Source: Lytechinus pictus
Taxonomy: Eukaryota
Reading direction: 5' to 3'
NCBI RefSeq assembly: GCF_037042905.1
Contig: NC_087251.1
Coordinates: 27,530,001-27,594,000 of the forward strand
DNA: 64,000 nucleotides
In this document: positions 4,177 through 37,180 of the stretch, piece after piece
Position numbering within the stretch: the first letter of the stretch is position 1
Layout: every line of letters starts with the position of its first letter
Notes under the pieces: model-generated
Told to the model about the DNA's origin: nothing
Seen by the model: only the letters and a program-made list of their open reading frames with translations
Databases searched by the model: none
Translations under genes and position numbers: made by a program

Positions 4177-4427
4177 ATTTATGTTTGTTTATGTTTGTGG
4201 TATAACTCCCGTAGGATTGCTGGTAAACGCCAAGCTGGTATATAACCAATTACCTTGGAAACATTTTACGTCTAGGTTAATCAGTCATAGTGGCTGACGT
4301 AATAGACGATAGATTTCACTCTTGGACCTTTTTTTTTCATCAAAGTGGAGACAATGGCAGAGTTGGGATTCGAACTCACAACCTTGCGATTATGAGTCCG
4401 ATGCTCTAACCACTGGACCACACGACC
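4177..4427 (-). mobile_element. tRNA-derived SINE (tRNA-like head 4355-4427)
   Basis: Reverse complement reads GGTCGTGTGGTCCAGTGGTTAGAGCATCGGACTCATAATCGCAAGGTTGTGAGTTCGAATCCCAACTCTGCCA, with A and B boxes but a poorly paired acceptor stem. A body and an AAACAT/AAAC-type tail follow. Confidence 0.75.
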
Positions 4428-19231: not shown

Positions 19232-20989
19232 GTAGGGTGACTGTCGCAAAAGGATCTCTTTCCTATTTTGATTTTTTTTTAACCCTCTAGAATTGGATTG
19301 CTTTTTTATAAACATTGTGTAGGCCTAATCTAAGTCTGAGTTTATACGAGTGACAATTTGTGACCTCTCGAATATGCCATCACATAATTGTTGCAAAGGG
19401 ACTACACAATGGGGCTTCCGAAGCCCAACAAACTATAAAATGTCAGGATGACACAGTGTGATGGTGATTCATGTCCACTGTACGTGGTGATTGCATAAAC
19501 TATGACCGAAAGGCAACATATCACCACCACCGCAAGCGGTTTCTCGGTTTGCGTAGTATTATTTGTTTTGTTTTCTCTGAAACGGGTAGCCGTCCGGCAC
19601 AGCGAAGCAGTCTGTGAGTGGTGTCCGGTTTTCATTCTGTTCTTAAATTAGCTTAGTTTAGAGTTCATAATAAATACTGCGAGATGACTTCTCTCATATC
19701 GACAGCGAGTTATGAGTACAGATATGGATACTATTTTCCGTCTCGTATACTATTTCTGAGTATAGCTCACGACTCTTCCTGGTTTTACAACTATGTTTTG
19801 CTTTATTTCTAGGAAAATCCAATTACACGAGCCTGAACATTATATACTGAATATACTTGGTTTCACGGTTCGGATAGACATTCCACTTAGCTTTCAGATA
19901 TGAACCGAAGATAAGCTTATGTTTTTTTCATTCCCATCTTCATTATTCATTATATGCGTTTATACTAACGTCAAATATGAGATGAAACAATCCAGATACC
20001 AATGATGATTCTAAGAATTGTTATTGAGGAGTATATTCTGTACGTTTATAGATAAGACCAGGGAGTTGAGAGGAGACCGAACAAAGCCCGTTAACAATGT
20101 AATTTCTTTTTTTTTTGGTATAAAGAAATACACTCACACATGATTATTTCTACCAATCACAATTTCATGTGATTACAATCCTATTGTAATCGAATCTTTT
20201 CAATAACCATATTGTATATTATACGTTGAGATATTTAATTTATGTATATGTGAAGCGCATTGAAACTTCGTGTATTATGCGCTATAGAAATGTAATTTTA
20301 TTACTATTATTATTAACATGAAAAATCCGCTGTCCTAATATTATGCACTGCTTGTGGTGTATTATACAGCGCTATATGGGCAGCCTTCCACAAGTTTACA
20401 CCAGGAAAAGAAATGAATTTCGACCCTTCAAACTTTAATTTGAAGCGGCGCTGGTGGCTCCTTTGTCGTAAACCAGCTTTTCCCTTTTTGTCTGGGTGGA
20501 AGGGGGGGGGGTTCCCTTTCCTATTGCATTGTATTCTTAGATAAATTCCTGTTTGAATGCTTAAGAGGAAAATGCATCCTTTACGTCAGGTTGATTTTTA
20601 ATAAAAGAGCAGAACAAAGAAAAAACATAACAATGCAATGAAAGTTTGGTGAAGATCCATCATAAAAAATAGATATGATTTTTTCTATTTGACTTTTGTA
20701 TCGTCACATGCTAGCACCCCTTCCCATAATGTGATAGAAGATTACATAAAATGCAATTTTCTCAGAAATATTAATCTCAGCCGTGCATTTTATCTAACAT
20801 CTGAAACATTATGACATTTATATACATATTTCCATGAGAAAACATTTTTAGTCTTCATGAACCAGTAAGAAATGGAAATTTATTTCATTTCCATGATGAA
20901 TTGACTGCTGTTTGCATATGAAGCCATAATTTTTTTTAGGTCTGAATATCGAAAATTTTCAGAATTATTTGATTAGTCCTATACATATC

Positions 20990-21171
20990 GTGTGTGTGTA
21001 TTTTGAGTTTTTGTCAGACGTGTATCAATTAGATATGATTATTTACGTCTGGGACCGACCTTTAACGTCACCATCCGAAAGACGTGACCAGGGCTCGAAC
21101 CTCGAACCTCTGCATCAATTTGTAACTTCCCCGCATAGCTTGGATTACAGGCGCACGCCACAACGCCCAGT
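20990..21171 (-). mobile_element. 7SL RNA (Alu-domain)-headed SINE with B-box, Deu/Nin-like segment and (CA)n tail
   Basis: Reverse complement ACTGGGCGTTGTGGCGTGCGCCTGTAATCCAAGCTATGCGGG versus the metazoan 7SL 5' end GCCGGGCGCGGTGGCGCGTGCCTGTAGTCCCAGCTACTCGGG. B-box GGTTCGAGCCC at 21091-21101. Then GTCTTTCGGATGGTGACGTTAAAGGTCGGTCCC. Flanking duplication ATACATATC at 20981-20989 and 21177-21185. Confidence 0.8.
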
Positions 21172-24100
21172 TTTCGATACATATCCTTTTAATGGCACAG
21201 TCTTTAAAATGTCTCTGTTAGATCATATATGTGGTTATTGAGCGCGCTTCGCGCGTCCACTTAGTGACTCAAAACTTTTGCTGGTGCCCCCCCCCCCCAT
21301 GCCCGTGACCCACAGTACGCCACTGTCCCCTTTAACTCCGCAGCGTAATCGGTGATGATCAAAGTACTGCCGATCAAATTTTATTCGCTTGGCTACGATA
21401 TCCAATGAAGCCGAAATGATATTAGGGGTTCACCTTTACCAGTATTTATTTGTTATCATGCTTGTATGGTCTTTCTTATGGGGGGGGGGGGTGGCTTGTT
21501 TATGACATAAAAAGTTATTGTTTCATTTGGTTTCTTTTTGAGTAATAAAATCTTTATTAATTCAGGCCTACGTTCTAATTCCTACTGTTAATGTAAACTT
21601 GTAGAGGGGCAATTCGTAAAGAAATTTCTGAACTGCATTTACATGTATCTGTTAAATATAGTGATCAATTATGAATATCATCCCGCATCTCGGCATACGG
21701 TATTTATTAGACAAGATATAATTGCAACGATTCCCATTTTGGTGAGTTAAAGACGTGTATTTGAAATCCACATGAGGTGTAATTACAGCGATATTTGCAA
21801 TGAATCCTTTTGTTTTCGACCCGGTTCCTTTGAACTATTCTATCTGTGTGACAGCATGAAAGTATTATTGCCGAGTCTGGGGATTATTGCGCAAGAACAT
21901 TACGCATTGGATATCTGGGAAGTCTTTCACGAACATTCGTGTAACGATCTGATAACTATGCCCTTGTCCAATTAGATTCAAGTATTTGAGTAGCTTGTAA
22001 CAGCAGTGAGTGAAGAATTGCGGACAATTCGCTATCTGACACACTCCGAATATCGTGCAACATTTTCACATCTACGTTAGATAACTTTTGAGTCCGCGTT
22101 TCACAAACCTCATTGCAATGACTATTGAGATGAGTGTTGACAGCTGCAGAAATCGTAGCATTTGAATAGCGCATAGGAAATCTATCAAAGAAGTTTGGCC
22201 TTTGTTATTGATGATATTGATATGAAGATTTGTGAAGCAGGGCCGTGCTGCTTTTACTTTGTTCTGTTGGGAATCATAGCACGTGTATTGATAAAGACAC
22301 ATCGAAAGATTGGAGTATTTTTTCAACTGTTGATTGATACCGTTCAGACATTCTACTGACTTGCCTGATATACCGTTCACACCAATTATGCCAATTCTGT
22401 AATGATGAAACAATGCATCGACTTTACTGTGATTCTTTGACTTGAGTTTAGTATGGCTTTGCTTTTGAACCTGTGTTGACACAATAAAGATCCCTTTTCT
22501 GATTATATTTGAGCATCAAAACTTTAAGATGCTTTGCGAAGAATAATCGACTGATAGTACCTATGGAATAATTTGATACTACAAAAAAAGTACATTGCAC
22601 ATTGTAGTTTTGTAAATGCCATCCCATAGCAAATGTACGTCTTTATGTTTTTGGTTCTTTATAAATGCGTATGACGTATTTGCGCCGGTGGTGTCCGACA
22701 GGCTTGCACTATCCACGTTTTTTGTCACCCGTCATAACACGGCTGTCTGTCCTGATCATAGATCCATGGTCATTAATCAATAGCACACTTGTGTCCACTG
22801 CTGGAGTCCACGTCACAAGTGGACATTACCGACAGACTTGTCACGAAGGTTTACGTTTCTCCGTCGTACGCTTTGGTTAATAAACCTTCCATTTGATACG
22901 GACACACCAACGAAACCGCCTTCAGACCGATCAAAGCTATTACGTTATTTCCATTAATGGCATATCACCGGTCGGTTTGGGTCGGTTTCGTGGGTGTGAC
23001 GGCAGCACTGGTCAAACCTGGAACGGTAGGGGGTAGTGGATGGGGTTATTGGGTAGCGATAGAGTCTTGCCCGGTTGCGACCACGTTAGGAGTGGACATT
23101 ATTAACAGACTTATCATGAAAGTTTACGACCCTAAACCTTTCTCGAGGGTGTAGCACTTGTCTCGCTTTTAAGGGTAGGGGATATTTGAGGCATAAATTC
23201 TGCGTAGGTCTTGTTCATTTGAGATCATGTCAGATTCAGAAGCAGACATTGCAAATGGCCATGTCATAAAGGCTTAAACCCTGCACCCCTACGCTGTACA
23301 CTAAACACTTATCAAGGGGGTAGTAGTATTCCATTCTTCATAGGGTAGGGGATATTTCATGTTCGGTTACGATGTCAAAAGTGGATATTACCAGTAACAT
23401 TGTCAAGGTTTCTCTTCACTCCTACTATGTATAGTTATTAAGTCTTGCTCACGGATATATTACTGGAAGAATCTTCAAGGATAGGGGGTAATTGGGTAGG
23501 ACACTGGTCTTGCTCTATTTTCATCTTGTCATTAATGGGTATTTAATACGAACGGACTTGTCACGAAGGCCTAGGTCGCTACAATCTAGGTCTCGCCCAG
23601 TAGTGCAGCATGACTACACGATTTACAGGGTGATGGTGCGTTCGGACGTGGTCAGAAATTGTGAAACACAAGAGGATTGTTATTCAAATTACGGCGATGT
23701 ATTGGGTACTATAGTGTTGATATATAGAGAGCATTGTTCGATATGGTACTTGAAAAGTTAAAATTACATAACTTGGGTTGATTCCCATTATTCGAGTGCC
23801 ATTGTAGCTAAAGTAGATTCGCCAATTCTAAATTTTTGGTCCTCACATCATAATACTTTATTGGTAAAGACTTGAAATTGGCTATACTAGAATCAAATGT
23901 TTAAAACATTGGGGTGTCAATTGACCTCACCTCGTCCCAAACTTTCTATTTTTTACCCCGTCACTCTTCCATGCTTACTCTCTTTACTCTCTTTCACACA
24001 CACTCTCTCCCTCTGTCTCTCCGTCTCTCTCTCATTCTCCCCCCCCCCATTCCTTCCTTACCACGCACCACTCTATTTAATCTTTTCAATGGGTGGTAGA

Positions 24101-36185: not shown

Positions 36186-37180
36186 TGAACCTTGAACCTT
36201 GAAGAGTAATCCCTTTCAGCAGCTTCAAAGCTATCCCGGGATGAAAACATTATGTGTATCAGGGCGGGGTGCCATGGTGAAGTAATTTGAAATTTCACTT
36301 ATATACATTAAAAGTGAATGTGCACCGTGCAAGTAAAAACTGCCTCTTGGCTTACAGCATAAAATACAGCTGGGTTTGTTCCCATTACAACAGGTCCTGG
36401 TAGGTGATTCCAAATTTTGACAGTACGTGGGAAGAAAGAGAACTTGTATGCACCAGTGGTTGCTTTCGGTATAGCGTATTTAAGGCTGTGATCATGTCGT
36501 CCAATATATGTGGCAGGACCAATGGTAGGAGGAAAAGGTACAGCAACTAGATGATGATGAATTTTATGGAAGAGGGTACACTGAGCAAGAAGACGACGTG
36601 TATATAGAGACTATCCCATCCGAATGCAGACATAAGGGCTGGGAAGGTATTGAGGTCCTGTAGTCACCGTGTACAAAGCGAGCAGCTGATCTTTGCACTT
36701 TTTCAATTGAGCTAACAATTGTAGCTGTATGCGGGTTCCATGCCTCTGATGCATATTCCAATTGTGGACGGACCAATGCAGTGTAGGCTCTGGCTTTCAC
36801 CTTTTTGGTACATGGTGACAAGGTCCTTCGGATAAGTCCCAAAGTACGACTTGCTTTTTGTCTGATGTTCTGGCAATGCTTATTCCAACGTAAATCAGCA
36901 GTGATCGTCACACCTAGGTATTTGTATTCACTTGCTCTTGGTATAAGATCATTGCGGAGAGAGTAATCATAGAAGCCAGGCACACGTTTTCGAGTTATTG
37001 ATATAGAACTGCACACTTCTTCACATTGAAATTCATCAACCAGGTTGAAGACCAATTGGATAGTTGCTGGAGATCCTGTTGAAGAATGTGATGGTCATTA
37101 CTTTTGGAAATCTCTATATAAATTACACAGTCATCAGCAAATAGCCTCATATTTGACCTTATCTTATCTTGGATCAGATC
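36186..37180 (-). mobile_element. 5'-truncated CR1-group LINE (RT C-terminal half, frameshifted)
   Basis: NMRLFADDCVIY..LQQDLQQLSNWSSTWLMNFNVKKC, then YKYLGVTITADLRWNKH..KASRTLGLIRRTL..AYTALVRPQLEYASEAWNPH. The 3' tail is (TTCAAGG)n at 36186-36203. Confidence 0.92.

Follow-up and report, generated by a model that had tools for sequence, protein, structure and literature searches.

The window analyzed here, a stretch of 64,000 nucleotides from the sea urchin Lytechinus pictus (contig NC_087251.1, positions 27,530,001 to 27,594,000, forward strand), contains at 21171..20990 on the minus strand an element whose 5' end matches that of 7SL RNA. This element very probably represents a full-length insertion of a young family of short interspersed elements (SINEs) that depends on a long interspersed element (LINE) and is built as a four-part chimera. 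From 5' to 3', the parts are read as nucleotides (nt) 1 to 47 of 7SL RNA, a linker leading to a consensus B box, a Deu-like core of ~40 nt, and a hairpin followed by an A-rich segment and (CA)n. At the level of sequence, nt 1 to 47 are shown to derive from the host's own 7SL RNA. The family has a single chimeric origin, is dispersed to unrelated sites, and shows low divergence between its copies as well as recent activity. Coordinates refer to the 64-kb window, and labels of the type L031 denote loci in the host genome (811 Mb in 368 contigs).

7SL Origin of the Head

A cmscan search of the 401-nt region around the element returns the Rfam model Metazoa_SRP with 30 bits and an E value of 3.8e-6, aligned to model positions 1 to ~48. 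The host genome contains seven full-length 7SL genes (272 to 283 bits). The first 48 nt of the element are identical to the gene in L037 at 42 positions (88%) and to the gene in L031 at 40, which bears out the original prediction of an Alu-like, 7SL-derived SINE. That prediction had likened the first 36 nt or so to the 5' Alu domain of 7SL; nt 1 to 31 equal the first 31 nt of the L037 gene without exception (31/31), and the likeness reaches to ~nt 47. The head corresponds to helix 2, hairpins 3 and 4, and the UGUAAU turn of the 5' Alu domain. The U3-A pair of helix 2 is common to the element and L037 only, the other six 7SL genes having C3-G at this position, which makes an L037-type 7SL RNA the likely donor. 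Matches to RF00017 below the threshold number 18 in the genome, with 31.9 to 34.9 bits, and those that were cross-checked are copies of the SINE.

Past ~nt 47, the element aligns to the whole host 7SL gene with a local score of 15, compared to a mean of 15.4 for shuffled sequences, 301 of 500 of which score at least as high. The similarity to 7SL therefore ends at ~nt 47, and the element contains neither an S domain nor the 3' strand of the Alu domain. With the remainder at shuffle level, the original prediction that the element is not a 7SL gene is upheld. A 7SL source for the B box or for a 3' Alu strand was considered as well and is unsupported, since the rest of the element aligns to 7SL as shuffles do.

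An ordinary tRNA-derived SINE (SINE2), similar to 7SL at its 5' end through chance or convergence, would account for the tRNA-type consensus B box and for the Deu-like core, which usually sits behind tRNA heads. This explanation is highly improbable in view of the 31/31 and 42/48 identities to the host 7SL gene. In addition, a permissive Rfam scan of the same 401 nt yields no match to tRNA or 5S models up to an E value of 10, so that the head is not better matched by either of these than by 7SL, and the window contains no tRNA according to ARAGORN. Around the B box, no more than 3 canonical pairs are counted by eye in the T-arm. The second-best match of the permissive scan is mir-1268, which we take to be Alu derived.

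Copy Number, Dispersal, and Subfamilies

A DNA search of the genome yields 52 scored matches with 91 to 100% identity from 1,771 first-look candidates, with copies on at least 20 contigs. The 30-mer spanning the junction between head and body occurs, with up to 2 mismatches, at 1,417 places (692 + 725), compared to 0 for the reversed control. The 40-mer spanning the junction between core and tail occurs, with up to 3 mismatches, at 1,419 places (control, 0). The element is thus not confined to one or two copies genome-wide. The identical junction in all copies indicates that the chimera formed once and was amplified afterwards, and its presence at ~1,400 places agrees with the predicted independently evolved chimera of a 7SL head and a Deu-like body. 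A length of 182 nt, ~1,400 copies on many contigs, and unrelated flanks of the copies characterize the family as a SINE.

These numbers also bear on the proposal that the copies are 7SL pseudogenes or truncated retrocopies, independent retrocopies combining 7SL and SINE, or contamination by human Alu. Small RNAs are known to give rise to chimeric retrocopies (Kojima 2020); however, one fixed junction at 1,417 places contradicts such an origin. Contamination is at odds with a head that equals host 7SL where host 7SL departs from the Rfam consensus and with copies on at least 20 contigs of a chromosome-scale assembly. This group of explanations deserves hardly any credence.

The divergence from the consensus has a median of 1.75% and a range of 0 to 9.1% in 52 full-length copies, a sample picked by similarity and patterns and therefore biased towards young copies. 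Three subfamilies are distinguished: one with a 7-nt internal duplication, one without it, and an older form that is ~89% alike. The duplication is lacking in L068, L071, L074, and L078, and L030 contains three units. Exact flank repeats of 7 to 13 bp accompany 8 of the 46 copies with distinct 5' flanks, compared to 1 of 46 in a control with mispaired flanks, and three of the eight (L013, L023, and L024) go back to a single insertion within a region that was duplicated. A clear target-site duplication is thus missing in most copies. Copies with 5' truncation and unique flanks are common.

Several loci show more than one copy. Tandem dimers joined by (CA)n have both outer flanks in common at nine loci on seven contigs, which makes them part of a larger repeat and not a dimeric SINE. 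The loci with dimers or this repeat are L018 to L021, L025 to L027, L029, L039, and L040; L040 has flanks of the dimer type with one copy only. One paralogous pair consists of a monomer and a dimer, and three tandem copies occur at one locus; L005/L006 and G000 C2:17634172-17634687 belong to the same group of loci. The tandem dimers and trimers joined by CA fit priming on CA/TG tracts.

Truncated copies show recurrent starts. Four head-less copies of ~100 nt with unique flanks (L090 to L093 on G000 contigs C3, C5, C6, and C1) carry nearly identical additional bases, CTTTTA or TCTTTA, at their start, immediately 5' of the core, and many other truncated copies begin right at the core. Reverse transcription may stop preferentially at the small hairpin surrounding the core, or a short variant may be amplifying. 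Full-length and variously truncated copies in L061, L074, L076, L077, and L086 lie at apparently the same position in one repeat, flanked by ...gactacaccatatttc... and then ...gctattcaatgttga..., which may reflect a target preference or a repeat unit that contains the SINE and has decayed since.

Architecture of the Window Copy

The copy in the window is a full-length member of the subfamily with the 7-nt duplication. Its GC-rich 5' end begins at 21171 with ACTGGGCG..., and the (CA)n run at 20990 marks the 3' limit. From 5' to 3', the head is followed by two units of GAGGTTC, the B box, CACGTCTTTCGGATGGTGACGTTAAAGGTCGGTCCCAGAC, the hairpin, the A-rich segment, and (CA)n. The features are as follows.

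20990..21171, minus strand: whole SINE copy of 182 nt, with 95 to 98% full-length identity to copies on many contigs and unrelated flanks
21125..21171, minus strand: 7SL-derived head, element nt 1 to 47 (Rfam Metazoa_SRP; 42/48 nt as in L037)
21158..21167, minus strand: putative A box for RNA polymerase III (Pol III), GGCGTTGTGG, element nt 5 to 14, identical in the host 7SL genes
21111..21124, minus strand: linker between the 7SL head and the B-box segment, without significant similarity to host 7SL or to the canonical DeuSINE
21097..21110, minus strand: tandem 7-nt duplication GAGGTTC x2, a subfamily marker present in 33 of 52 full-length copies
21091..21101, minus strand: putative Pol III B box GGTTCGAGCCC, element nt 71 to 81, a match to the consensus
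21047..21086, minus strand: Deu/Nin-like core motif of ~40 nt, corresponding to the 5' part of the Deu domain only
21015..21051, minus strand: 3' stem-loop with a 7-bp stem (CAGACGT/ACGTCTG) and a 23-nt loop, present in the minimum-energy and centroid folds
20990..21014, minus strand: A-rich segment and (CA)n microsatellite tail, the CA run differing in length among copies
21177..21185, minus strand: 5' copy of the target-site duplication, GATATGTAT, with CGAAA between duplication and element
20981..20989, minus strand: 3' copy of the target-site duplication, GATATGTAT, directly abutting the tail
20952..20955, minus strand: first TTTT 3' of the element, 35 nt past the tail, a possible Pol III terminator

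The start of the element, the GTCTTTCGGATGGTGACGTTAAAGGTCGGTCCCAGACGTAAATAATC stretch, and the (CA)n tail are all found on the minus strand where the original prediction had placed them. The base at position -1 is an A in 35 of 49 copies, so that the start of the family probably lies one base earlier, at 21172. The duplication GATATGTAT, which reads ATACATATC on the plus strand, is exact over 9 bp. The longer, degenerate duplication of 14 bp proposed around this core agrees at 11 of 14 positions by eye.

Putative Promoter Elements

The element contains the two parts of a putative type 2 Pol III promoter. Box A at nt 5 to 14 is identical to host 7SL, in which box A has been placed at nt 6 to 15 (Kojima 2020, Mob DNA 11:18), and box B lies at nt 71 to 81. 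The perfect B box announced at about 70 nt from the 5' end is thereby located, and the GGTTCGANNCC motif is intact in 43 of the 52 full-length copies. Its description as tRNA type is only partly sustained: the segment matches the B-box consensus, but a derivation from tRNA is not supported, as neither a tRNA model nor a tRNA-headed sibling matches it. No TTTT occurs within the element on the sense strand. The arrangement of box A and box B, an interior free of TTTT, and a TTTT 35 nt downstream would fit transcription by Pol III. A search of sequencing runs listed 24 runs, with 20 entries from 9 studies and none recorded as RNA; the coded organisms A, B, and C contain at most 0.21 of the sampled words, and these runs do not enter into the evidence presented here.

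The Deu-Like Core

The core agrees by eye with the AmnSINE1 row of a published Deu-domain alignment (Kojima 2020, Supplementary Fig. S4) at 29 of 40 positions. Compared with the canonical DeuSINE of the host genome, it agrees at 21 of 24 positions, a value reached by 1 of 500 shuffles. The resemblance to the Deu/Nin domain that had been noted in the original prediction is hereby supported for the 5' part: the first 24 to 40 nt of the domain are recognizable, and the second half is absent. Described Deu or Nin domains comprise ~70 to 330 nt, with ~120 nt for Nin.

A degenerate Deu motif that excludes the 7SL-headed SINE has 355 exact pattern matches genome-wide. Two copies of the canonical DeuSINE (L094 and L095) were aligned and show a tRNA-like head, a long Deu domain, and the core GTCCCTCGGATAGGACGTTAAA; an (AAT)n tail is present in one of the two copies read. 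This canonical element probably corresponds to the DeuSINE already published from sea urchins. Its overlap with the 7SL-headed SINE is limited to the B box and 24 nt of the core, and it is thus not the recent parent.

3' Hairpin, Tail, and Candidate LINE Partners

The 3' hairpin, in which CAGACGT and ACGTCTG enclose 23 nt, is the sole strongly supported fold of the element, with a z score of -4.85 and none of 200 shuffles folding as well. Candidate loci for a LINE partner were collected with patterns requiring the tail or core and forbidding the SINE's own upstream bases (49, 69, and 21 matches). The 5'-truncated copies among the inspected loci have unique flanks. No long open reading frame (ORF) abuts the tail at any of these loci; the longest upstream ORFs on the same strand encode 60 to 344 amino acids, the one of 344 amino acids lying upstream of a full-length SINE.

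Two candidates for the end or the body of such a LINE were rejected. The upstream part of a tail-only fragment beside L028 matches a different repeat, and no match spans both. The ORF at 36564..37094 on the minus strand of the window, with a weak GIY-YIG match below the cutoff, is followed downstream by sequence without a (CA)n end. This frame of 176 amino acids resembles by eye a fragment of a retroelement protein, and its sole Pfam match is GIY-YIG with 21.2 bits, compared to a cutoff of 22.6. A short AAGGTTC repeat lies ~350 nt past the frame, in the downstream region extending to ~36180, and is unrelated to the tail of the SINE.

In the 5' flanks, CAC or ACA occurs at -9 to -2 in 18 of 49 copies (L001 to L087); a control window placed more distally on the 5' side has such a motif in 7 of 49. 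(CA)4 or more precedes four of the copies. This excess, in a sample that contains paralogues and dimers, fits priming on CA/TG tracts.

Proposed Origin and Mobility

The chimera may have arisen by a template switch from the RNA of an older SINE onto 7SL RNA near nt 47, or by recombination at this point. Template switching was proposed for the birth of a hagfish element (Kojima 2020) and likewise for the composite 5S/tRNA heads of DeuSINEs. Source copies would be transcribed by Pol III from box A and box B, and transcription would end at a T run further 3'. The 3' hairpin with (CA)n would then be recognized by the reverse transcriptase of a stringent LINE, probably related to CR1/L2, which would copy the SINE RNA into nicked target DNA.

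Beyond its promoter, the 47-nt head might recruit SRP9/14, bringing the SINE RNA to ribosomes that synthesize the LINE protein, as proposed for Alu; this step is plausible, although somewhat short of an even prospect. Alu retrotransposition has been shown to require a 46-nt 5' Alu domain, with which SRP9/14 associates (Moldovan et al., NAR 2025). An SRP14 exon is present in the host genome. Of the two loop cytosines of the head, with the positions that pair with the other loop assumed by us, the first is kept across subfamilies and the second is C or U (by eye).

Alternatively, the head may only supply part of the Pol III promoter, namely, box A and the correct start, and perhaps RNA stability, with mobility conferred by the 3' hairpin and (CA)n and no role for SRP9/14. 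This has close to an even chance of being correct. Stringent LINEs recognize 3' structures, so that hitch-hiking on ribosomes is not strictly needed (Kojima 2020). The most invariant segment of the head, nt 1 to 30, contains box A, whereas the loop region at nt 33 to 45 varies between subfamilies and is enlarged compared to 7SL; the 3' strand of the Alu domain is absent. On the other hand, box A alone requires only ~15 nt, and the limit of the retained piece nearly coincides with that of the 46-nt domain that binds SRP9/14 (Moldovan et al., NAR 2025). None of the subfamilies seen has lost the UGUAAU turn or either hairpin.

Taken as a whole, the reading of the family as a natural SINE with a minimal Alu domain is tentative and rather doubtful. 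It combines a separate 7SL capture, without precedent in invertebrates, a head swap at ~nt 47 in place of a central deletion, the retention of exactly the 5' domain that binds SRP9/14, and an SRP9/14-mediated route to ribosomes translating a non-L1 LINE, probably of the CR1/L2-like type. If true, hitch-hiking through SRP9/14 would be a general, repeatedly reached strategy of SINEs that is independent of L1 and poly(A).

A number of results count against the proposed LINE-dependent chimera and its use of SRP9/14. The 3' Alu-domain strand found in all described 7SL SINEs is missing in the alignment with host 7SL. The hairpins expected of an Alu domain are recovered in part: the head folded alone has the two-hairpin topology of the 5' end of the L037 7SL RNA, but it folds no better than shuffles (z scores of +0.26 and +0.68), and the 7SL hairpins are absent from the minimum-energy fold of the full-length element. 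Compared by eye with 7SL, the head has ~3 additional nt in loop L1.2, which differs among subfamilies; this could weaken the binding of SRP9/14. SRP9 is not detected in an exon-wise Pfam search, a type of search that cannot show absence. A tRNA-headed sibling with the same body is found neither among 12 loci with core or tail patterns nor in the canonical DeuSINE. A LINE with the same 3' tail, which the original prediction had suggested looking for, does not appear in three pattern searches and one DNA search; all 37 loci inspected are SINE variants or 5'-truncated copies, and a tail less than ~90% alike would escape this search. Finally, the 7SL overlap of ~47 nt falls short of the formal SINEBase criterion of 60 nt, on length only. 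Because of this short overlap and the incomplete Alu domain, the family is filed as a 7SL-headed chimeric SINE and not as a canonical SINE1.

7SL Gene Neighborhoods and Other Loci

Three 7SL genes at ~7.91 to 7.92 Mb of G000 contig C10 (L031, L035, and L036) are each accompanied by a SINE copy of the old subfamily. These copies have the same orientation as the genes and end ~35 bp upstream of the gene start. They are ~89% alike, with ~80% in L036. L031 contains two SINE copies, the unit being duplicated ~413 bp apart. The three 7SL genes on C1 and the one on C12 lack such an upstream SINE. One insertion followed by tandem duplication of the unit of SINE and 7SL gene would explain the pattern on C10. 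A motif resembling a tRNA T-arm, cctggttcgagtccagg, lies 15 to 25 nt past the T run of the 7SL genes L031, L034, L035, and L036 and is weaker at L033; it thus accompanies four or five of the seven genes, on two contigs.

Within the window, a tRNA-like sequence at 4355..4427 on the minus strand reaches 29.4 bits, compared to an Rfam cutoff of 29, and is not called by ARAGORN. It is followed by an A run and sequence unlike tRNA, and it is probably the head of a copy of a different, tRNA-derived SINE. In the host genome, the Pfam family Bindin is matched with 236.7 bits in two exons; bindin is a sperm protein of sea urchins, so that the host is an echinoid, as the original prediction had supposed.

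Comparison with Known 7SL SINEs and DeuSINEs

SINEs with a 7SL origin have been described from supraprimates and hagfish (Kojima 2020), to which a later report (Kosushkin et al., BMC Biol 2026) adds the shrew mole family Urop. The taxa named in the original prediction, primates, rodents, tree shrews, and hagfish, are therefore correct but lack the shrew mole. All 7SL SINEs are said in the later report to follow a central deletion of ~183 nt with both 7SL ends kept. SINEs of sea urchins in print carry tRNA heads.

The family might already be cataloged, for instance as a Repbase SINE2-n_SP entry or an automatic Dfam model, with its 7SL head unrecognized or unpublished, in which case the interpretation alone would be new. 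Repbase has contained SINEs of sea urchins since 2005, among them SINE2-3_SP, listed as a tRNA-headed DeuSINE with a CR1 partner. Nevertheless, this is unlikely, given that the Repbase curator confined SINE1 to Euarchontoglires and hagfish in 2018 and 2020, and that the SINEBase authors (Kosushkin et al., BMC Biol 2026) recognize none beyond supraprimates, hagfish, and the shrew mole. The published literature searched contains no report of a 7SL-derived SINE from a sea urchin, an echinoderm, or any invertebrate, and the canonical DeuSINE of the host is a different element.

The closest parallel to the 7SL-headed chimeric SINE is SINE1-1_EBu from the hagfish Eptatretus burgeri (Kojima 2020). 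In both families, a 7SL head is joined to parts of older elements, and a non-L1 tail, presumably of the stringent type in the sea urchin as well, ends in a microsatellite. Both were born independently of Alu and B1, and the hagfish family is likewise young, with 2,363 copies compared to ~1,400 here. In contrast, SINE1-1_EBu keeps 96 nt of the 5' end and ~44 nt of the 3' end of 7SL, i.e., a complete Alu domain with a central deletion, whereas the sea urchin element keeps ~47 nt. Its boxes A and B are both derived from 7SL, which is not demonstrable for the B box here. The hagfish tail is bipartite, RTE derived, and ends in (AAC)n, compared to a Deu-like body and a (CA)n tail in the sea urchin. 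The target-site duplications also differ: those of SINE1-1_EBu measure ~17 bp, while most copies here are without a clear one.

Alu, FLAM, B1, Tu, and Urop share with the sea urchin family the 5' Alu domain at the 5' end, an internal Pol III promoter (putative in the sea urchin), and tandem dimers. They contain both ends of 7SL and poly(A) and rely on L1 (Kosushkin et al., BMC Biol 2026), whereas neither 3' 7SL sequence nor poly(A) is present here. The dimers of the sea urchin family are joined by (CA)n and share flanks at 9 loci, where they are copies of a larger repeat.

With regard to its modular organization, the element resembles the DeuSINEs AmnSINE1 and SINE3, with composite promoters of 5S rRNA and partial tRNA, and SINE2-3_SP, in which a Deu core is reported to stand behind an exchanged Pol III head and the B-box segment to be kept (Nishihara et al. 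2006, as cited in later literature). These elements have a stringent LINE partner, as proposed here. The new head in DeuSINEs with composite promoters is 5S, compared to 7SL in this family. The domain itself extends from ~120 nt (Nin) to 330 nt in DeuSINEs elsewhere, whereas ~24 to 40 nt are recognizable here, and the tail consists of (CA)n, compared to (AAT)n in the host's canonical DeuSINE.

The 46-nt minimal Alu domain (Moldovan, Yin and Moran, NAR 2025) occupies the same position and has nearly the same length as the sea urchin head. It is an engineered human construct assayed with L1 in HeLa cells; the echinoid element is natural and would have a non-L1 partner. Since the head coincides with this domain, the question whether SRP9/14 hitch-hiking on ribosomes aids SINE mobilization in general, also by LINEs other than L1, can be addressed directly in a tractable embryo. 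A head that acts as a promoter donor only would limit the generality of the Alu model.

Alu is the most studied retroposon, and independent origins of 7SL SINEs are described as extremely rare. The sea urchin family would be the first 7SL-headed SINE in an invertebrate and would represent a second route to a 7SL head. The comparison with the known systems supports as new the invertebrate host, the presence of the 5' 7SL domain only, a probable head swap in place of a central deletion, and a tail other than poly(A).

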